64,000 bases of DNA, taken from assembly GCA_004257845.1 (NCBI GenBank), contig GCA_004257845.1_4800.1; one strand, 5' to 3'. Both the position numbers and the translations under genes were made by a program. This document shows, in pieces, positions 1,875 to 62,690 of the stretch. The notes under the pieces are model-generated. The model saw only the letters and a list, made by a program, of their open reading frames with translations. It was not told the origin of the DNA and did not search any database. Position 1 is the stretch's first letter. Each line of letters begins with the position of its first letter. The stretch comes from a phage.

Positions 1875-1904
1875 ATTCATCGGCAAAGGATTGCCGCGAG
1901 TTTT

Positions 1905-2190
1905 ATACGTATAATGACGTATCATACGTATCAAGTAAGTTATTGTTTTCAAAAGAATCTTACGGATGATACGGATGATACGCGTTGCCGCCGTACTATA
2001 TAGGAATTCAAATAAATTAATTTAAAATTATATATCTAATTTAATTTTATTTTTTTATAAACTCTTATATATGAAAAGTATCCGTATCATCCGTATCATC
2101 CGTAGCACACCAGTGATAGCGCGGCTTATACACCGATACGGATAAAAATACGCCTCATTTTATCCGTATCATCCGTATCACACTAATAAA
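1905..2190. repeat. iteron-like region 1: tandem 9-mers (ACGGATGAT) in direct and inverted orientation flanking an AT-rich core
   Basis: TACGGATGATACGGATGATACGCGT at 1961-1985; inverted copies GTATCCGTATCATCCGTATCATCCGTAG at 2078-2105 and TATCCGTATCATCCGTATCA at 2161-2180; AT-rich stretch about 2000-2070; box CGTATAATGACGTA at 1908-1921. Confidence 0.7.
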
Positions 2191-2237
2191 GGCGCGGCTA
2201 TATCGGTTGTTATACATATTCAAACCATAATTATTGT

Positions 2238-2266
2238 TTGCCTAAGTTTTTTTCATTAGATATAAT
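2238..2266 (+). promoter_or_regulatory. sigma70-like promoter (TTGCCT-17 nt-TATAAT) upstream of scaffold/capsid genes
   Basis: -35 TTGCCT 2238-2243, 17-nt spacer, -10 TATAAT 2261-2266, about 24 nt before start codon at 2290. Confidence 0.5.
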
Positions 2267-2289: not shown

Positions 2290-3708
2290 ATGCGAATGCA
2301 AACGGCACGCGAAATTGACAAAAATGGATTCTTGACGATTATGGGTTGTCCAATTTCGTCATTTGGCATTTTTGATTATTCTGCTGGTCAAGTTGGTCTT
2401 GATGGTGATCCGAATCGCATCGTAAAAGTCTATCGCCCTGAGTCAGCGGTGAAAGACCCCGAAGCGATAGATTCATTCAAAAATATCCCTTTCATCGACA
2501 ATCACGAAATGCTTTCTGGATTTGAAGGTGATGAGGATAACACAGCACCCGAAGAGTATGGAGTTGATGGCGTTCTGACTGGCAATGTTTATTATGACAA
2601 GCCATGGATGCGCGGCGACCTTAAAGTGTTTAGCCGTCGTCTGAAGAAGGCCATTGATTCTGGAAAGGTTGACTTGTCTTTGGGCTATGACTGTGAATTC
2701 ATCATACAGTCTGGAGAGTTTGACGGGCAGCCGTATGAAGTGGTGCAGACAACTCTTCGCGGCAACCACATTGCTCTCGTGGACGTTGGTCGAGTACCAG
2801 GTGCACGGGTGCTGGATGGTCGTTGCTTTGACCATCTTTGTTTGACGACTGTAACACCATCCAACGAGGATTTAGACATGCCAAAACCGTTAAAAGGTAA
2901 AGCGCGTGATAATGCTGTTGAACAGCTGAAATCACTGATCCCTGCGCTCGAACAATTTCTGAATGAAGAGAGCACTGAAGCTGCTCATCAGGACGAAGTT
3001 GAAGTGAAAGCAGAAGAGAAGGACTCAACCGAAAATCGTGAAGAAGTAATGGTTGATCCAGAAGTCAAGGCAGAAGCAGAAGAAACCCCAGAAGGTGAAG
3101 AGAAGTTTGAAGTTGAAACTGAATCTAACGCTGGCGGCGAACTTCCGCAATTGATCAGCCAAATCGAAGCACTTATTGCAAAACTGAAAGGTGGCGCGGT
3201 AGGTGATGAAGAAGAAGTTGAAGCCGAAGTCAAAGACGAAGAAGTTGAAGTCAAGGCTGAAGATGTATCACCTTGCGACAAAGCTGAAGATGTGGTTAGC
3301 GGCCTGCAAAACAGCAACGTAAAGGGGGCTTCGGTCGAAAAAGATGACAAACCGACAAAAGCGGCGAAAGCGTCGCCAGGTCCAGCAAAAGGGGAACACT
3401 CAATGGCATCTGATTCAGCAGTTGCTGCTTTCTACGCTGATTCTGCTCGTAAGAATAGCCTCTACCAGCGCCTGTCTAAAGTTGTTGGTGCCTTTGATCA
3501 TGCAACTATGGACTCCAAGTCCGTAGCGAAATATGGCGCTAAAAAGTTAGGCTTGAAGTGCGTTGATGGCGCTGAGTTTGACGTGGTGGATAACTATCTG
3601 CGCGGCGTTGAACACGGTCAAAAACAGCGTGTAGTCGCAAAACAAAAGGCCGCTGCGGATTCTGCAGCAACTGACGAAGCATTTGAAGCTTGGTTGAAAG
3701 GGGAATAA
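2290..3708 (+). CDS. prohead scaffold / prohead protease-like protein
   Basis: Immediately upstream of capsid gene; long acidic low-complexity central region (EEVEVKAEEKD..., EEVEAEVKDEEVEVKAED) typical of scaffolding proteins; RBS GAGGGTGG before ATG. Confidence 0.45.
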   Translation: MRMQTAREIDKNGFLTIMGCPISSFGIFDYSAGQVGLDGDPNRIVKVYRPESAVKDPEAIDSFKNIPFIDNHEMLSGFEGDEDNTAPEEYGVDGVLTGNVYYDKPWMRGDLKVFSRRLKKAIDSGKVDLSLGYDCEFIIQSGEFDGQPYEVVQTTLRGNHIALVDVGRVPGARVLDGRCFDHLCLTTVTPSNEDLDMPKPLKGKARDNAVEQLKSLIPALEQFLNEESTEAAHQDEVEVKAEEKDSTENREEVMVDPEVKAEAEETPEGEEKFEVETESNAGGELPQLISQIEALIAKLKGGAVGDEEEVEAEVKDEEVEVKAEDVSPCDKAEDVVSGLQNSNVKGASVEKDDKPTKAAKASPGPAKGEHSMASDSAVAAFYADSARKNSLYQRLSKVVGAFDHATMDSKSVAKYGAKKLGLKCVDGAEFDVVDNYLRGVEHGQKQRVVAKQKAAADSAATDEAFEAWLKGE

Positions 3709-41610: not shown

Positions 41611-42693
41611 ATGGCTAGTTTAAGAGAAGAAGCAAAAATAATTGAAGAGTTTTTAACAGAACTCCAAAGAGGCATCCCAGAAGATGAGCGCGTCATGACG
41701 GTGTTTGCTCCTGAAGCAACGGTGCAGACCGACGAGCGCGGCAAGAAGATCAACAGCAGCTTCTGGCCTAAGCCTTGGAAGTTGGGCAAGCCGCTCATGC
41801 AGCACCAAAACGGCTATGCATGCATCAGTTCAATGCGTAAGTCTCCCAACCCAAAGACGGGTGAGATGCGATACTGGCGTACAGAGTCGGCCTTTGGTCA
41901 CGGCATGGCGATGATGGTCGACGACATCGGTCACGGTAAAGGTTCCAAAGGCGATTTAGATTTGGAATTCTTTTTTGAGCGACTGAAGCCGACTGTCATC
42001 GTCGAGACTTCACCGAACAACCACCAGCTTTGGTACTTCTTTAAAGAACCGATTGACCATCTTATTCAGTTCAAAGCGTTCCTTGGGTCTTTCGTTAACA
42101 TGGTACTCAAGAAGGGCGGCGACAACACGATTAAAGACGTAACGCGCGTGGGTCGTGTTCCTGGGTGCATCAACAACAAGCGTGTGACTCACGACGGCCC
42201 CTATAAATATGTCGATGAGAACGGCGACCCGTTCCGCTGCCGACTTGTCCATGCAGACTACTCATTGCGCTACACCATCGAAGACATTTGTCAGGCATTT
42301 GGCTTTCACGTCGTCATGCCACAAAATCGTGAGATTCAAATTGACGTCGATGAATACAAGTATGATGCTGTTTGGTATAAAATAGCCCAGCAGATTCTAT
42401 CGCGCAACAAGATGGGTGAAGGGTCTGATGGCGACGTCATCGAGAATATGTCAGGCAAGTGCCGCATAATCTGTCCTTGGGGTGAAGAACACACCAACGG
42501 CGACCCGTATGGCGCTTACTTTCGCGGCCCTATCCCTGGTGCAGAACATGAGTTTGTGTTCGGTTGCGCCCACGACTGTCACCGGAAAGGGGAAGGCAAG
42601 AAAGGTTGGACTGCTTTTGTTGAAGCAATCGTCATGCCTTATATTGAGAATCAACTTGACATGATAAATCGTCGTGCAGGTGGCATAAAATAG
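41611..42693 (+). CDS. AEP-type primase-polymerase-like protein with C-terminal zinc-binding motif
   Basis: MMVDDIGHG (acidic motif), ETSPNNHQLWYFF (SxH-like), C-terminal Cys/His cluster CPWGEEH...GCAHDCH. Confidence 0.45.
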   Translation: MASLREEAKIIEEFLTELQRGIPEDERVMTVFAPEATVQTDERGKKINSSFWPKPWKLGKPLMQHQNGYACISSMRKSPNPKTGEMRYWRTESAFGHGMAMMVDDIGHGKGSKGDLDLEFFFERLKPTVIVETSPNNHQLWYFFKEPIDHLIQFKAFLGSFVNMVLKKGGDNTIKDVTRVGRVPGCINNKRVTHDGPYKYVDENGDPFRCRLVHADYSLRYTIEDICQAFGFHVVMPQNREIQIDVDEYKYDAVWYKIAQQILSRNKMGEGSDGDVIENMSGKCRIICPWGEEHTNGDPYGAYFRGPIPGAEHEFVFGCAHDCHRKGEGKKGWTAFVEAIVMPYIENQLDMINRRAGGIK

Positions 42694-44002: not shown

Positions 44003-45673
44003 ATGTCAATTAATAATGACAATCTTCCAGAGGATACAGGTGATGAATTTGGTGCAATCTTTGACGAAATTCAAGATGCAGGTGTTTCGGAAGAAATGCA
44101 GGCAGCAGAGCAGCAAGGCACCAGAGCTAAAATCAGCCTTCAACACAAAGCTGTTGAAAAAGATTCAGAGCGCATGGAATGCTACGGTGAAGAAGACTTG
44201 GTTGAAAGAGCACGCTTGCTCGCCTCACTTCAGGTAATCAAGTTCCCTCACTACAAGCCTACCAAAGATGACTTCGTTCTACAGGCAGACCGGACGAGTG
44301 ACATGAACCGTTATGCGGTTTTCGACGCGTTGTTTGATAAGGGAAGTGGCATTGTTCCATTCCCTCACAAAGATACTTTTCGTGGGCGCTTAGTCGACCA
44401 TCGCGGCGAAACATTCACTGACCGTACCTTGGAAGTCACAGAGATAGTCGCTGCTGTCGACGCAGCAGGGTTGTCCAACCCAAACTCACGTCAGGTCGCT
44501 CAATCCTATAAGGAATGGGCCATGCGTTATCAGCGTGACGACCTGATGGACTTCTTCTACAAGAAGCTGCCTGAATGGGACGGTACTGCGCGCATCGAGA
44601 AATACCTTATCGAGCTATTCCGACCGTTCGATACAGAGTTAAACCGACAAATCGGTGTGTATTTTTGGCTATCGCTCTACAACCGCCTGACCAACCCTGG
44701 CTGTCAAGCGCCAATCTCCATCGCGCTAATCGGCGGCCAGAACGCAGGGAAGAGTTATTTTAGCAAGCTGCTTTGCGAAGCTATTATGAACGACCGCCAC
44801 GCAACACCGATTCCGTTGAACTTAGCCGCGCAAAACTTCAACCCGTTCTTGCGAGCTATTACGGGTCGCTCAATTATCGCGAACGTTGGCGAGATGACAG
44901 GCTTTAAAAAGGCCGACATCGAAAACATGAAAGCATTCCTGACTAAGACGGAAGATGACCTGGACTTCAAATTTGAAGATACGCAGGTTAAACCACGCCA
45001 GTGGATTGCCATCATGGACGGCAACGAATACGCAGGCATGCAGCGTGACGATACGGGCAACCGTCGTGTTTACCCTATCTTTGTTGGCCAACTTGCTGAC
45101 AAGGACGGGCAACCGAACTGGTCTAAAGACTTCCAAGCTGACCTTTCCACTTTGAAAGAAGATGTTTGGCAGCTTATGGCTGAGTGCGCTGCGTGGATGG
45201 AGAAGCACGGCGAAGCAGGCTATAACGCGTTTGTTGGTGAAACATCTCGCATGCTTACTGAGTTCAGTAAAAACGAAATGGAACGTGCACGCGGCGTTAT
45301 CCGTGATGAGATGGTCGACAACGACCTTGTTGAAGTCGTCATCACCGCGCCTTATGACCGACATCACAGCGGACGCTGGCACATCACAAGTGGTGCTATT
45401 GCTATGGGATTCAGAGCGAAGTGCGGCAAGTCGCCTTTCTCTCGTACCCTTGCGCCGCACATGTCGAAGCTTGGCTTTGAGCCTGCGACCTATCGCAACC
45501 AGCGCGGCTACTTTACGCCGCTGATTAAGAATGAAGCAGGGGAATACATTTCTGATCTGATGACCATCTTAGCGTATCTTATCCGCGATGAGTCTGACCC
45601 TGAAGATATTGAATTCTTGAAGAAGGTTATTGAGCGTAAACGTTCTTTGGGAAGAGATAAGGATGAATTCTGA
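44003..45673 (+). CDS. P-loop NTPase, primase-associated/D5-like helicase family (putative)
   Basis: Walker A LIGGQNAGKSYFSKLL; Walker B-like IAIMDGNE; RBS AGGAGG. Confidence 0.5.
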   Translation: MSINNDNLPEDTGDEFGAIFDEIQDAGVSEEMQAAEQQGTRAKISLQHKAVEKDSERMECYGEEDLVERARLLASLQVIKFPHYKPTKDDFVLQADRTSDMNRYAVFDALFDKGSGIVPFPHKDTFRGRLVDHRGETFTDRTLEVTEIVAAVDAAGLSNPNSRQVAQSYKEWAMRYQRDDLMDFFYKKLPEWDGTARIEKYLIELFRPFDTELNRQIGVYFWLSLYNRLTNPGCQAPISIALIGGQNAGKSYFSKLLCEAIMNDRHATPIPLNLAAQNFNPFLRAITGRSIIANVGEMTGFKKADIENMKAFLTKTEDDLDFKFEDTQVKPRQWIAIMDGNEYAGMQRDDTGNRRVYPIFVGQLADKDGQPNWSKDFQADLSTLKEDVWQLMAECAAWMEKHGEAGYNAFVGETSRMLTEFSKNEMERARGVIRDEMVDNDLVEVVITAPYDRHHSGRWHITSGAIAMGFRAKCGKSPFSRTLAPHMSKLGFEPATYRNQRGYFTPLIKNEAGEYISDLMTILAYLIRDESDPEDIEFLKKVIERKRSLGRDKDEF

Positions 45674-54027: not shown

Positions 54028-54312
54028 GCCTGTGGAATGTGAGGCTTTATTATCGGATAAAGCGATTGATTTGTGTAAATCTATTAGAGGGTCGTGGGTA
54101 GTAAGGATTGTGACGTGAATTTTGTGTCTTGAATATGTGTGCGAATTTGGAAGAATATTGTACTGTGGTGCTGTGGGATTGGAGAGGGAATCACTAGGAA
54201 TTGGAGCGTGTACCGTGGTGTGTGGTCCTGTAGGCTGCGCCGTATATGGGATTGTCGCTTGAAACTAAAAAGGAGATATAGTTAGCTGGCTAACCTTACG
54301 CATAGAATTTAA

Positions 54313-54604
54313 GCGTATAATGACGTAAGATTTGGACCTATCCGTAGTTCACTCCACACACTTCTATGGTGCGCCGCGACTGGGTTCAGTGGTACATCTT
54401 ACGGATGATACGGATGATACGCGTCGCCGCTATACTTTATACAACTTTGAAAAAACAATTAACTCCATTTTGAATTAATTTAAATTAATTTTTTTCTACA
54501 TCCTCATACTTATACTAAACTTATATTTATACGTATTATCCGTAAGATATAAGTAAAAACAAAGACTTGCGGCAATACGGATGATACGTCATGATACGCT
54601 TCGA
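54313..54604. repeat. iteron-like region 2 (diverged paralog of region 1)
   Basis: GCGTATAATGACGTA at 54313-54327; TACGGATGATACGGATGATACGCGT at 54400-54424; AT-rich stretch about 54430-54530; inverted TATTATCCGTAAGAT at 54533-54547; ACGGATGATACGTCATGATACGC at 54578-54600. Confidence 0.7.
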
Positions 54605-54710
54605 CCAGCCAGCAGCGGCTAAGTCATTGATTTGCATAACAAGCGGCGAAAGGGATGGATTTCTTTTATACGTATCAAACAGTACACCACGCACCACGGT
54701 CCGCAATCCT

Positions 54711-56283
54711 ATTTGCACTATGATTTGTGTACGTTTATAGCCATAATGAACATCAATCTGCACTTGAATATAATGTCCATCCATTGTATAATTCACACTA
54801 TTAATTTGCACTATGGGATTTTGCACTATGAGTCAAGATTATGTAGCGATGCCTGAAGACTTTGAAGACCCGCGATTCGCAGAGCACAATCAGGCTTTAT
54901 TCGATGAGTTCATTGACCTTGTTATTCAGGGCCATGACATGCGCGCAGCTTTTGCACTAGTATTTGGAATGGAAGTTGCAACGGATAACTACACTGGCCA
55001 GCGAATCCTTTGCGCACAACGCAATCCGTACTACAAAATGCGCTTCAAAAAGCGTATGGAAGAGATGCCACTCAAGGATTTGTGGAGCGTAAAAGGTGCA
55101 ATTCACAATTTGGTCAAGCTTGTGCGTGATCCAGAAGTCGCGGCGTCAGCCAAGCTTAATGCTATTCGTGAACTGAATATCATCTACGGCATCACGATGA
55201 TTGATGAAAACGGCAATAGTAAAATGGGCCGTTCCATGGACGATTTCTACAAGGATTTTGGAGAGGCAGCCAAAGAAGGTGAGCAATTCTCCCGCCACTA
55301 GCCAATTTGCACTATAAAACGGCCCTAGAACACATTTTCTCCACTTCTAGGGCCATCGGTAATACGACGGGGAAGGTTACAACCGTAAACGCGTTAGAAA
55401 GTGTATTATTATAAGTCATCTTTTAGTCACTTTACGTAACAATTTACGACCTTCAACCGTCCAATCGAACGACTCCACCAGCAGATTTGCACTATAACCT
55501 AAGACGATGCGCCCTTTCTCGTTATCGACCCGCCAACAAGTCTCGAATAGCATTCGATTTGCACTATTAACTATTGCCGCAACTCGCGTAGGATAAGCGC
55601 AATTTGCACTATGGTCGTAAAGGGATAAGGTGCGACCACTTCCGATGGACAACGTAGCGATGAGAATGAGTGTATTCATAAGCCACCAATTTGCACTATG
55701 AAAAGCGACCCCGAAGGGCCGCCATTCGATTAGATAATCTGGAAGGTGTAGGACTTGTTGCCGAACTCGAAGTTTAAGCGTCCAGCTTCCTTAAGCTTCA
55801 TGCGGAAGCGAATGTGCTTGCTATCCGGTAAGCCCAGCGCGGCGAACGCTACGCGGACCGATTTGAACTCGCCTACACCCTCGACCATGACACCGTTACG
55901 GGTAAGACGCTTTTGCGCCACTTCCTTATTATCCCAACTTTTTGCAATACCTTCGCTATTCGAACGGCGATGGGATGGAGTTCCATTTTGCACTACGCAA
56001 TTTGCACTATCGTTTAAACCGCTCTTAACGAAGGCTTCATACTCTTCGTCGGTCATCGCGTCGAGTTCTTCCTGGGTCGGCTCGGACTTTTTAACGACCG
56101 CACGCGCCTTATGCGTTTTTACATCGTTGGGCACTTCCTCGCGCGACTTCGCGTCTGGGATGGGCGACTCGTTGGACGGCTCATCGAGCGCGTTTAAGGA
56201 CTCGATTAACGCTATTACGCGAGTCTCGGCGGTCCGGCGGTCCGCAAATTTTTTGATCGGCTTCGAACCGGAATTTGCATTAT
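54711..56283 (+). repeat. dispersed same-orientation array of 12-bp motif AATTTGCACTAT (at least 11 copies including variants)
   Basis: Copies at about 54711, 54803, 54819, 55304, 55485, 55557, 55601, 55688, 55985, 55999, 56272, all on the + strand; several lie antisense within minus-strand ORFs. Confidence 0.75.
54813..55301 (+). CDS. hypothetical protein
   Basis: ORF; start could be ATG 54813 or 54828 (no clear SD for either); followed by hairpin 55321-55354 (10-bp stem GGCCCTAGAA / TTCTAGGGCC). Confidence 0.4.
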   Translation: MGFCTMSQDYVAMPEDFEDPRFAEHNQALFDEFIDLVIQGHDMRAAFALVFGMEVATDNYTGQRILCAQRNPYYKMRFKKRMEEMPLKDLWSVKGAIHNLVKLVRDPEVAASAKLNAIRELNIIYGITMIDENGNSKMGRSMDDFYKDFGEAAKEGEQFSRH

Positions 56284-58386: not shown

Positions 58387-58500
58387 GAAATTTGCAGTAC
58401 ACTAATCAAAATACGACACATTTGGTCCACTAACTTTTCAAAGAAAAAGTCCTGGACAGTACCGTACTATTTTGTACCCACAGGAAATTTGCAGTACACT
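58387..58500 (+). repeat. two exact 17-bp copies GAAATTTGCAGTACACT
   Basis: 58387-58403 and 58484-58500; share AATTTGCA core with the upstream motif array. Confidence 0.6.
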
Positions 58501-60341: not shown

Positions 60342-62690
60342 TTATTTCGCTGCTTTCAGCGCGGCTATCTCTGCCTTGAGTTCATCAATCTGATCCATCA
60401 ATGCGAGAATAGCCTCGTGGTGCAATGCCGCTGCAACACCTGGAGTGTTTACTGACTTTACGTCGTCCAGAATTGAACCATCGCGCAGGGTGACTGGTGA
60501 AGACTTCGTTTCTGATACTGCTTCAGGAAAATCTTTCTCTACGTCCTGCGCGATGAATCCGTATCCTATTGAGCCATTGGTTTCCAGAACCCATGTGACT
60601 CCTTTGATGTTTCTCATCTTGGATAGTGGATTACTGATACGCTCAATGTTGCTTTTAATTCTTTCGTCAGATGTGTTTCGCCATTCTTGGCATCTTGCTA
60701 TACCATCAGCACCAAATAAATAAGATGCGCTGCTTCCAGTGCCACTTAAAATGTTAAGTTGCGCGCGGTCCAATGCTGTCGTGCCACTTCTGACCCCTCC
60801 GAGCATCCAAGTTCCATCGTACCAGTCGCCGCCAACAGAGTTAATATAGCCTCCTTCTGGTACATTCGCGTAGTTGATCATCCTGATGGCATTTCTTTCT
60901 GAAGCCGCTACCCCAACTGAGTTTAACGGTTGTGCAACGACATCCTTGGGTCTGACGTATGCATCAATATGTAATGCGCCATCAGGTCTTAGTGTGCCAA
61001 TTTGAGTCTCTGCGCCTGGAAAGTACAAAGTCCCAGCTTGGTTGAATGACCATTCTTGCACCCCATTAGATATCACAGCACCTTGTTCAGACGTTAATCC
61101 ATCAATCTTACCGTATGCTTGCAAGAATGCTTGATACGCAATGTTGGTGCCAATTTTATATTCAGATTTTACACTGCCGCCTCTGACAAACGTTCCGGTT
61201 GCAGGTTTTACTGCGTCACCATTAATAACGCTCCAAGTCGTATTCGCAGCAACGAACCCACCAGATGCACGGATTACCCAGACGCCGACAAAACTTGCGG
61301 GAAGCACTTCGTTGTTGGCACCACCATAAATGTTGTTGTATTTGTTGGCGTCAAAAACAGCTTCGCCATAGGACGTTGCACCTGTGGAAATAGCCCTTGT
61401 CTGATACCTTGTTTGTGGGTTTGCAGGACTAAACACCCCAGATGCCCCAGACATTGCTGTCGCGCCCGATCCACCTGTATCAGTTCCGTGAAAGGTGACT
61501 GTACCTATAATGTTTGGCAATCCAGGCTTGGTGATTCTTCCGTCAGTATTACTAAGCCCTTTGTCTCCGCGCGCGAACAAGCCTGCAACAGAACCAGTCT
61601 GCACGCCATTTCTGTCAGGTACACGGAATGTGGTTGATCCATCACCAAGGGAGTATTTGCCTCGTTGAGAATAATCAGCAAGCCAGTCTGCATCGGCGAT
61701 AGGTGACAGCATTTGCGCATACGCCCAAAGCTCAGGCCAGTCAGCACGGTTGAGTAATTGACCATCAGCAACAACTTCATACGGCTGAATATAGGCGCGA
61801 CTATCTCGTAAGTGAAAGTCACCAACGCCATAGTTCATTACGCCGTTCATGCTTGGGCCAACGGTGCCAGTATTTACTAAGTTCTCAACCCAACACTTCG
61901 TCGCGGCATCATAATCATTAACAGGGTCGCCAGCCAGTGGTGTTGGGCCTTGTGGACGAATATTCAACCATGCTTGCGCATTGTCTGCTGATCCGGTGCC
62001 GCCCATGGAAGTTGGAACGATGCTTTGATCAGCAACAGGGCCAAATCCAAAGGCATCTTTCATTCCCTGAATAGTCGTTTGTCCTGTGCCGCCGTTGGAT
62101 ACTGGGATGACAGTTCCAGCATTATATAATTGCGCCCATGGGCTCCAAACTCCATCTACCGCGTTATAAGTCCTTTGGTGTGTAATGTTTTCGTAGTACG
62201 TTGAGTATCTTTGAACGCAACTTTCTATTGATGGTCCAGTTTTTAGGACTTCAAGGACTCCTGCTTGCGCCACTGGGTAATTAAGAGCAAGTTGAGCACT
62301 AGCATTAAAGTCTTGGAAATACTGCCCAAACCAAGAGCCTGTCAGCAAGTTCAGATTTATCCCAGAAGGAAGCACTCCGTAATTCCTTACAGTTCCTGTC
62401 AATGTTGCGGCAGTAGTTCGAATGGAAAGCATGTCACCAGCAGCCCATGCACGCGCTGCAGTCCCTTCCTGTGCACGCTGAACGGTCAGGACATCACCAA
62501 CGACGGCTGTTACTGTGATGATTTCGAATTGGAGGCCTGTTGCAGCGTCTACGATTGTCGCCACTACACGCTCGTTTGCAGCCAAGGTCGGAAAGCCCGA
62601 CCCTGAGCGGATTGTGATTGTGGTGTCTGAAGTCGTCGTTGGCTGAGCGAGCGCGACCTCAAAGTTGTTTTTGAATATTAGCCTTGGCAT
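60342..62690 (-). CDS. tail fibre/tailspike protein with C-terminal intramolecular chaperone (peptidase S74-like) domain
   Basis: C-terminal SDERIKSNIERISNPLSKMRNIKGVTWVLETNGSIGYGFIAQDVEKDFPEAV...coiled coil matches the auto-cleaving chaperone domain of phage fibres/endosialidases; Gly/Thr/Ser-rich body. Confidence 0.65.
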   Translation of the reverse strand: MPRLIFKNNFEVALAQPTTTSDTTITIRSGSGFPTLAANERVVATIVDAATGLQFEIITVTAVVGDVLTVQRAQEGTAARAWAAGDMLSIRTTAATLTGTVRNYGVLPSGINLNLLTGSWFGQYFQDFNASAQLALNYPVAQAGVLEVLKTGPSIESCVQRYSTYYENITHQRTYNAVDGVWSPWAQLYNAGTVIPVSNGGTGQTTIQGMKDAFGFGPVADQSIVPTSMGGTGSADNAQAWLNIRPQGPTPLAGDPVNDYDAATKCWVENLVNTGTVGPSMNGVMNYGVGDFHLRDSRAYIQPYEVVADGQLLNRADWPELWAYAQMLSPIADADWLADYSQRGKYSLGDGSTTFRVPDRNGVQTGSVAGLFARGDKGLSNTDGRITKPGLPNIIGTVTFHGTDTGGSGATAMSGASGVFSPANPQTRYQTRAISTGATSYGEAVFDANKYNNIYGGANNEVLPASFVGVWVIRASGGFVAANTTWSVINGDAVKPATGTFVRGGSVKSEYKIGTNIAYQAFLQAYGKIDGLTSEQGAVISNGVQEWSFNQAGTLYFPGAETQIGTLRPDGALHIDAYVRPKDVVAQPLNSVGVAASERNAIRMINYANVPEGGYINSVGGDWYDGTWMLGGVRSGTTALDRAQLNILSGTGSSASYLFGADGIARCQEWRNTSDERIKSNIERISNPLSKMRNIKGVTWVLETNGSIGYGFIAQDVEKDFPEAVSETKSSPVTLRDGSILDDVKSVNTPGVAAALHHEAILALMDQIDELKAEIAALKAAK

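Follow-up and report, generated by a model that had tools for sequence, protein, structure and literature searches.

A Repeat-Flanked, A+T-Rich Element in the Head-Gene Block of a Wifcevirus Has a Sister Copy at the Genome Terminus and Is Probably a Second Replication-Origin-Type or Terminase-Docking Element

Results

Direct and inverted 9-bp repeats surround an A+T-rich core between head genes

This study concerns a non-coding element, here called module A, at positions ∼1900–2200 of a 64,000-nucleotide stretch of phage DNA (NCBI GenBank assembly GCA_004257845.1, contig GCA_004257845.1_4800.1); the whole stretch is referred to as the window. The first 8 kb of the window are 95–98% identical to 29 Wifcevirus phage records (e.g. 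vB_EcoM_WFC, Mansfield, and Bas98–101), and by sequence similarity the window is that of a Wifcevirus, an Escherichia coli myovirus with direct terminal repeats (DTRs). Members of this genus are E. coli and Shigella myoviruses of ∼68 kb and distant kin of the Pseudomonas phages of genus Pbunavirus. Module A sits between a 45-aa open reading frame (ORF, 1737–1874), which is preceded by portal, MuF-like, and head-fibre-like genes, and the gene for the head maturation protease/scaffold. In the original prediction, which was made from the letters of this stretch, the element was placed in a 560-bp gap; the actual non-coding gap is 415 bp (1875–2289), since the 45-aa ORF, which relatives have annotated, also has positional counterparts in three further genera.

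Module A is a cis-acting element that consists of a ∼90-bp A+T tract flanked by arrays of a 9-bp repeat, some direct and others inverted (Table 1). The exact 9-mer occurs eight times in the window, counting both strands, versus ∼0.5 copies expected, and six of these eight copies fall within 212 bp; it is found only once outside module A and a second locus, module B, that is described below. When units with at most one mismatch are counted, eight are present inside 300 bp, which is more than in any of the 200 first-order Markov simulations that were used to set the chance level for repeat clustering (maximum 3, mean 1.4). The tandem and inverted 9-mer clusters of the original prediction were present essentially where it had placed them, but its repeat list had overlooked one plus-strand unit, the degenerate ACGTAT-type units, and both GCGCGGC elements.

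Several of these units are parts of larger repeats. There is a perfect 22-nt inverted repeat (1961–1982 and 2083–2104) with arms 100 nt apart, and the first GCGCGGC element belongs to a 38-nt composite repeat made of two units, a spacer, and GCGCGGCT, the two copies of which (2089–2126 and 2162–2199) are 84% identical (family D2). In the four aligned relatives, the unit at 1924–1932 is the exact sequence ATCCGTATC. Folded as single-stranded DNA, module A forms a long hairpin (−30.3 kcal/mol, z = −6.5). A structured RNA or tRNA was rejected, as Rfam 15 gave only chance matches below threshold (22.8 bits versus a gathering threshold of 140 and 16.4 versus 57.6) and ARAGORN no tRNA. An inverton was also rejected, since all 29 related records are colinear with this region in one piece at ≥95% identity, the five aligned genomes have it in the same orientation, and no recombinase is annotated.

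The tract between the arrays contains the least stable 60-bp duplex of the window (2012–2072, z = 5.08), and its instability is also evident at the 100-bp scale (1996–2096, z = 4.69). The A+T-rich stretch that the original prediction had placed between the repeats is thus present, and the duplex-stability profile ranks it lowest in the window.

Table 1. Coordinates of the features of modules A and B and of their neighbours in the window
Feature	Position	Strand	Details
Terminator-like hairpin CGGCAAAGGATTGCCG with T-rich tail	1881–1906	+	Hairpin 1881–1896; consensus scan; ends the upstream operon
Degenerate ACGTAT-type units	1904–1932	.	Palindrome TATACGTATA, plus ATACGTATC at 1924–1932
Module A left iteron array	1959–1985	+	Three tandem 9-bp units CTTACGGAT GATACGGAT GATACGCGT; consensus GATACGGAT
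Short G+C-rich element ACGCGTTGCCGCCG	1981–1994	.	Between left array and A+T-rich core
Module A A+T-rich core	1996–2078	.	Segment 2012–2072 is 95% A+T
Right iteron array 1	2080–2106	-	Three tandem inverted units
GCGCGGC element 1	2119–2125	.	
Single exact unit GATACGGAT	2135–2143	+	
Right iteron array 2	2162–2179	-	Two exact tandem units
GCGCGGC element 2	2192–2198	.	Family D2
σ70-type promoter TTGCCT-17-TATAAT	2238–2266	+	Protease/scaffold–major capsid operon; 10/12 consensus matches
Head maturation protease/scaffold gene (DUF2213)	2290–3708	+	First gene 3′ of module A
22-mer TCTATGGTGCGCCGCGACTGGG	54363–54384	+	Module B only; absent from module A
Module B left iteron array	54398–54424	+	Same three units as at 1959–1985
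Module B A+T-rich core	54431–54531	.	Holds the left end of the virion DNA (54467)
Module B right-hand units	54528–54601		ATACGTATT and ATCCGTAAG on the minus strand; AATACGGAT ... GATACGCTT on the plus strand
terS, small terminase, 157 aa	54828–55301	+	First gene to the right of module B, inside the DTR

A paralogue of module A lies upstream of the small terminase gene

When the window was searched with the module A region, a paralogue (module B) was found at ∼54300–54680. The two modules can be aligned colinearly over 190 nt (69% identity, E = 2e-21) in the order left array, G+C-rich element, A+T core, and inverted units, and within this alignment 54396–54430 is 97% identical to 1957–1991 over 35 nt. 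Module B is the best genome-wide k-mer partner of module A (55 shared 9-mers versus 1.3 ± 3.9), and its core ranks second in duplex instability within the window. The element had been treated as single in the original prediction, which thereby overlooked a second copy of the whole module and with it the physical left end of the virion DNA, directly upstream of the small terminase gene, terS.

The terS gene begins 227 bp downstream of module B, whereas module A is ∼16 kb from it on the circular map. It was identified by a phmmer match to PDB entry 7UXE, the small terminase of Pbunavirus E217 (E = 7e-34); in the Wifcevirus records inspected, this gene is labelled only "hypothetical protein," and it lies far from the large terminase gene.

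The DNA around module B has some features of its own. By eye, the top strand is strongly G/T-rich on the left (54100–54240) and C/A-rich on the right (54680–54720), with recurring motifs such as ATTGTGG and TTCGTGGA, so that a large imperfect palindrome of ∼600–900 bp surrounds the core; a pattern of this kind is also seen in the module B flanks of the relatives DP1, MyoSmar, and XcP1 introduced below. A mosaic breakpoint coincides with the left edge of the module B array: 18 of the 29 Wifcevirus records lose homology at or within ∼30 bp of 54396, and most sampled Pbunavirus records break at the corresponding edge (DP1 about 58718).

The module pair is kept in four genera with lineage-specific repeats

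The gap 5′ of the protease gene is also present in Serratia phage MyoSmar, Pbunavirus DP1, Xanthomonas phage XcP1, and Burkholderia phage WTB. It carries a short repeat of its own in three of these phages, and its best genome-wide k-mer partner there is the gap between a VapE-like gene and terS. In MyoSmar (unit TTACTTTTCGTTTT), 35 9-mers are shared versus 1.8 ± 2.8, and modules A and B align over 144 nt (68% identity, E = 4e-13); in DP1 (unit TGGTAATTTGG), the corresponding values are 28 versus 1.4 ± 2.2 and 79 nt at 82–85% identity, the latter obtained via close relatives; and in WTB (unit TTAACTA), they are 32 versus 2.6 ± 3.2 and 171 nt at 70% identity (E = 5e-23). The gap 5′ of the XcP1 protease gene has neither a paralogue nor an A+T core, and the only module in this phage is of the B type, beside the VapE-like gene, as expected if module A is an accessory second copy.

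The core proteins of the four genera with an A/B pair are only 35–70% identical. Across these genera the repeat unit has been replaced several times, always in step at both loci, which argues for a lineage-specific DNA-binding protein that acts in trans. The two module cores are the two least stable 60- and 100-bp segments in all four paired genomes (the window, MyoSmar, DP1, and WTB), and GCCGC/GCGGC-type elements lie on the core flanks of both modules in every genus examined. The GCCGCG/CGCGGC flanking motif was rejected as a genome-wide signal because the 7-mer is too common in these genomes.

Within Wifcevirus, module A and the promoter downstream of it have 5 differences in 334 bp (98.5% identity) between subgroups that differ by 4.75% overall; the median 334-bp window between the same subgroups has 14 differences, and 11% of windows are equally conserved. 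In five aligned Wifcevirus genomes, the module A core is invariant except for one T-run indel. The original prediction had made its case depend on repeats that are conserved in related phages, and we find them conserved at this level within the genus, with the architecture kept across genera. The DNA to the left of module A (1875–1955 and the head-fibre-like gene) is unusually variable, and the site of the terminator-like hairpin varies among relatives (82.7% identity over 1875–1955). The gene at 806–1726, 5′ of the 45-aa ORF, is annotated as "tail fiber protein" in Bas98 but matches the Pfam head fiber family PF11133, and it is the most variable gene of the first 8 kb (90.6% identity to Mansfield).

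These comparisons bear on the possibility that module A has no function of its own, being either a fragment of module B that is kept similar by gene conversion or a purely structural element (for example a cruciform, a recombination hotspot, or a site of RNA hairpin processing). The 35-nt stretch that is 97% identical between the modules of this phage is not so in WFC, which suggests a recent sequence exchange, and the strong hairpin potential of module A, a metagenome contig that breaks exactly at 1957, the start of the shared repeat, and the variable or mosaic DNA to the left of both modules are in line with such an origin. However, the pair is kept at the same two positions in four genera with its units replaced in step, and neutral relics do not persist so long; in addition, the core and the repeats are nearly invariant within the genus, and no Rfam family matches. 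On balance, we regard this explanation as very unlikely.

The promoter downstream of module A is homologous to a mapped start site

The σ70-like promoter that the original prediction had placed at 2238–2266 is borne out by its homology to P014, a σ70 start site upstream of the protease gene that was mapped by ONT-cappable-seq in Pbunavirus 14-1. Its own start site would be near 2274, its −10 region ATATAATACA is kept in MyoSmar and DP1, and the last repeat array of module A ends ∼60 bp upstream of the −35 element. In the 14-1 data, no start site was present in the homologous module A core or repeats; the module A core is thus unlikely to be a promoter hub, and this map gives no support to a promoter inside the A+T core. 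In module B of 14-1, the σ70 promoter P040 overlaps the right-hand repeats, and P040 and P041 transcribe terS. An apparently conserved distance from the last repeat to the start site (∼−103 and −134 in the window and DP1) was judged to be due to chance, as it is not found in MyoSmar and other landmarks shift.

A regulatory role for module A was considered in light of these results. As an operator or enhancer, it would bind an early repressor or a late activator on its repeats and thereby control the σ70 promoter of the protease/scaffold–capsid genes, and similar control of the terS promoter at module B would co-regulate prohead and terminase genes. The presence of a real σ70 promoter 60–100 bp downstream of the last array, the overlap of P040 with the module B repeats, the late packaging or head functions of the genes 3′ of both modules, and the −10-like hexamer TATCAT within the repeats are all consistent with this role. 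It is at odds with the lack of a start site in the 14-1 module A core or repeats, which weakens the multi-operator hub that the original prediction had offered as an alternative. It is also at odds with the other late promoters (portal, TerL, and tail genes), which are without such repeats; outside the two modules there is only one copy of the exact 9-mer. Furthermore, it leaves unexplained that the two cores are the least stable segments in four genomes and that arrays lie on both sides of a core that is 100–200 bp upstream of the promoter, and XcP1 retains the gap 5′ of the protease gene without any module. Together, these observations make an operator or enhancer quite unlikely.

The repeat arrays of module B enclose the left end of the virion DNA

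Position 1 of the WFC record, the first base of its DTR, maps to window 54467, inside the module B core. The Mansfield record, which was opened at the DTR boundary predicted by PhageTerm (a tool that maps termini from read starts), ends at 54466. Two independent determinations thus agree to the base on where the virion DNA has its left end, namely between the module B arrays. The DTR of the WFC record is 3784 bp long, and Korf et al. put the length of the terminal repeat at about 3.7 kb (PMC6563267). The right edge of the DTR corresponds to window 58446 and has repeats unlike those of module B. A 16-nt direct repeat, AAATTTGCAGTACACT, lies ∼50 bp to either side of this edge (58388–58404 and 58484–58500), and GTACACT copies are present beside the corresponding right boundary of MyoSmar; the repeats at the right edge may be a separate recognition signal for the right-end cut.

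Fixed ends are also associated with module B in other genera. The DTR boundary predicted for MyoSmar by PhageTerm (record position 3559) falls inside its module B. The module B 22-mer is 100% identical in this phage, although the proteins of the two phages are only 36–69% identical, and MyoSmar carries it as an inverted pair around the terminus (record 3348–3375 and 3632–3659). The same 22-mer terminates in CTGGG, the core of a phage-specific, non-σ70 start-site motif reported for 14-1. Several papers describe Pbunavirus genomes as circularly permuted, but at least six Pbunavirus records (PAP8, Pa204, Pa193, TH15, Ab29, and PS44) start within 3 bp of DP1 58740, which lies ∼50 bp to the left of the module B core, and Essoh et al. 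found a single fixed read end at this site. Based on the fixed ends in Wifcevirus, MyoSmar, and Pbunavirus, module B is a packaging-initiation or terminus region in three genera. The PS44 record (KM434184.1) is unusual in that its first part (1–2511), which starts at the module B end site, joins terS and one further gene to the region before the large terminase. There is a 34-bp overlap at the junction, and 60397–62368 and 68299–68871 are duplicated; the arrangement has the appearance of an early region that was either misassembled or altered in a deletion variant.

A search for comparable ends at module A gave a different picture. None of the 29 Wifcevirus records starts in module A, and only 1 of 297 Pbunavirus records does so, that of E215 (NC_042080.1, position 1 = DP1 12800), which starts ∼15 nt from where the fixed end of module B would correspond in module A. 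This start was rejected as a DNA end in module A, since one phage of 297 is compatible with chance, and the published terminus analyses that we consulted report ends only at module B. The 68.5-kb metagenome contig mentioned above (IMGVR_UViG_3300045988_152943) ends exactly at window 1957, the first base shared by the two modules; it was rejected as a physical end, as it is most likely an assembly break at the shared repeat.

Since the left end of the virion DNA is found in its sister copy, with terS directly downstream, a function of module A in packaging has to be taken as a serious rival to the replication function considered in the next section. Module A would be an uncut paralogue of a packaging-initiation site, the 9-mers of which bind the small terminase or another packaging specificity factor. 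This factor would wrap or bend the A+T tract between the arrays, as at P1 pac or SPP1 pacL-pacC-pacR, and the resulting complex would direct the left-end cut at module B and dock without a cut at module A, where the B-specific flanks and the cut-site sequence are missing. Module A could then pair with module B (as proposed for T4 gp16), be a rare second start, or tie head-gene expression to terminase levels.

Such a function explains the end between the module B arrays and the adjacency of terS better than an origin does: the left end is inside the core in two independent Wifcevirus records, the predicted MyoSmar boundary is inside module B as well, the Pbunavirus record starts and fixed read end are ∼50 bp from the core, terS follows directly, and P040 of 14-1 overlaps the right-hand repeats. 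The ∼92–113 bp between the flanking arrays are kept across genera and, by our own estimate, would wrap about once around a TerS ring; TerS belongs to the core proteins that diverge fastest; and the E215 record starts close to the position homologous to the end in module B. On the other hand, record starts in module A amount to none in Wifcevirus and the one in Pbunavirus, the ends in the published analyses consulted are all at module B, and a phage with exact terminal repeats has no evident need for a second terminase site 16 kb from the first, although module A is kept in four genera. TerS of E217 showed no appreciable DNA binding in vitro (PMC9611059). Module A is also more symmetrical than module B, which is unusual for a unidirectional packaging signal, and its extreme A+T core is left unexplained. 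Extreme duplex instability is not known to be required for pac sites. When these points are combined, we consider a packaging paralogue somewhat unlikely, although it is the main alternative to an origin.

Modules A and B as a candidate pair of replication origins

Modules A and B share the arrays, the G+C-rich element, and an unstable core of ∼90–100 bp, and only module B has the DNA end, terS, the 22-mer, and the long flanks, which argues that the function common to both is not cutting itself. As read from these sequences, both modules would let a protein complex assemble to either side of an easily opened or bent DNA segment. Module A is probably a second replication-origin-type (or terminase-docking) element. 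The explanation that we tentatively favour, although we would give it somewhat less than an even chance, is that modules A and B are a pair of replication origins made of iterons and an unwinding element, by analogy with oriL and oriR of phage SPP1.

Four considerations favour the origin explanation. Extreme duplex instability between repeats is a hallmark of unwinding elements; in each of the five genera examined except Wifcevirus, module B comes directly after the VapE-like gene; the order of elements is that of classical plasmid origins; and SPP1 oriL/oriR is a close precedent. In a classical oriV, repeats are followed by a G+C-rich element and then by an A+T tract, and the same succession of repeats, G+C-rich element, and A+T tract is found on the left side of module A. 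The origin-like layout of direct and inverted iterons around an A+T-rich core that the original prediction described has therefore held up as a description, given the least stable core, the two-locus design in four genera, and the SPP1 oriR precedent.

In the proposed mechanism, a phage-encoded, lineage-specific protein would bind the 9-bp repeats at both modules. The main copy would be module B, which is beside the replication genes (those for a RepB-type primase and a VapE-like NTPase), and module A would be an oriR-like second copy between the MuF-like and scaffold/protease genes, with a terminator and a promoter on either side. The initiator would load on the inverted arrays and then open or distort the core. 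At module A, the outcome would be either initiation at a second origin or a tightly bound initiator that makes forks stall and promotes the changeover to concatemer synthesis. From sequence features, we infer protein binding and a binder for module A, as well as unwinding and origin or fork-barrier activity.

Several candidates for the binding protein were evaluated. The window encodes a RepB-type primase (41611–42693) and a VapE-like P-loop NTPase (44003–45673). Module B is directly 3′ of the VapE-like gene in DP1, MyoSmar, XcP1, and WTB and 8 kb from it in the present phage, and terS is directly 3′ of module B in four genera and ∼3 kb away in XcP1. Gene adjacency was rejected as a guide to whether TerS or the VapE-like protein is the binder, since XcP1 and Wifcevirus disagree. 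These two proteins are the fastest-diverging of the five core proteins compared (32–44% identity), so either could carry the changing repeat specificity. No DnaA box (TTWTNCACA) is present in module A or B, the unit TTATCCGTA being two positions off this consensus, and any origin must therefore use a phage initiator. An IHF consensus is lacking in module A, and the only one at module B is in its right flank (54620). A DnaA-dependent origin, or one that relies on host DnaA or IHF sites, was rejected on these grounds. In the window as a whole, the DnaA-box consensus is depleted (2 versus 6.9 ± 2.4 expected).

Other observations weigh against an origin function. The DNA end between the arrays of module B (in Wifcevirus and MyoSmar) and the position of terS directly after it have the look of a terminase recognition site, and an origin function must treat both as coupling or coincidence. 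The gene neighbourhood does not discriminate, as the module stays with terS in Wifcevirus and with the VapE-like gene in XcP1. Neither module is at a point of divergent transcription. The cumulative GC skew has its global maximum at module B; GC skew was rejected as an indicator of an origin because it only follows gene orientation. Finally, the protease gene adjacent to module A is equally conserved, so a recent recombination block could account for part of the conservation within the genus.

A further proposal is that one module serves two processes, the complex that opens the origin also creating the structure that terminase cuts to form the left end. This cut would account for the DTR boundary of Wifcevirus and MyoSmar as well as for the single fixed end of Pbunavirus, and module A would be the partner of module B, serving as a pairing site or fork barrier that sets when replication gives way to packaging. 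We hold this combined function to be unlikely.

Discussion

The closest precedent for the module pair is found in phage SPP1. Its oriL and oriR share direct repeats and an A+T-rich unwinding element and are bound by one and the same protein. The oriR copy splits the head-gene block, with MuF-like gene 7 before it, the scaffold gene after it, and transcription signals on either side, and it has been proposed that oriR stalls forks and triggers concatemer synthesis (PMC6316719). As with SPP1 oriL and oriR (bound by gp38), one of the two copies described here lies with the replication genes and the other amid the head genes, and module A matches oriR in its position and in being bracketed by transcription signals. 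The systems differ in that there is no sequence or protein homology between them (gp38, gp39, and gp40 in SPP1 versus a VapE-like NTPase and a RepB-type primase here), in the 9-bp units and the inverted arrays on both sides of the core, and in the genome terminus, which is held by the copy with the replication genes in the present case, whereas pac is a separate site in SPP1. In addition, binding and activity at modules A and B are putative.

Terminase recognition sites provide a second comparison. In P1 pac and SPP1 pac (pacL-pacC-pacR), short repeats flank the cut. Short repeats on both sides of a cut region and an adjacent terS are features that module B shares directly and module A by paralogy. 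Unlike these sites, module A has no DNA end, is not beside terS, and has an extreme A+T core; Wifcevirus makes exact terminal repeats of 3.7–4.0 kb rather than headful ends; and TerS binding is putative here, the Pbunavirus homologue having shown no appreciable DNA binding in vitro. In T4, the gp16 pac site is in gene 16 and a related sequence is in gene 19, and their pairing has been proposed in a synapsis model that is unproven. If the modules act in packaging, a small-terminase recognition sequence would likewise occur twice in the late region, although the T4 sites are short homologies in coding sequence and not modules of repeats and an A+T core.

Short repeats beside or around an A+T-rich region are also known from the IncQ plasmid RSF1010 oriV, the origins of SaPI/PICI elements, and P4 ori/crr, and in P4 two separated repeat clusters cooperate. 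Module A is like these origins in the order of repeats, G+C-rich element, and A+T-rich region, and the companion enzymes are of the same families (a RepB-type primase and a P-loop NTPase of the primase-helicase-like kind). It is unlike them in its repeat unit and arrangement, in that no RepC-, Rep-, or α-type initiator was identified here, and in its location inside the structural operon of a virulent myovirus.

The element is thus ordinary in kind, an iteron/A+T-core cis element, and new in its details, namely lineage-specific repeats that are kept in step at two loci in four genera, with a twin that holds the genome terminus beside an unannotated terS. In the literature and annotated records that we consulted, there is no description of such an A/B element pair, and no replication origin or packaging signal has been described for the group of Wifcevirus, Myosmarvirus, and Pbunavirus. 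Our analysis narrows both candidate functions to two short DNA elements and places the small terminase gene, which is unannotated in Wifcevirus records, directly beside the genome end. It also reconciles the conflicting reports on Pbunavirus ends (circularly permuted versus fixed), as all of the fixed ends lie in module B.

For personalised therapy and synthetic rebooting, pbunaviruses rank with the most widely used Pseudomonas phages, and the two modules give engineers who rebuild these genomes concrete regions to keep intact or to exploit. We have encountered no description in the literature, for tailed phages, of an origin that is physically coupled to a packaging signal and has a dedicated second site. 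If an origin and a packaging site are so coupled in these phages, this would be a new way to coordinate replication with packaging.

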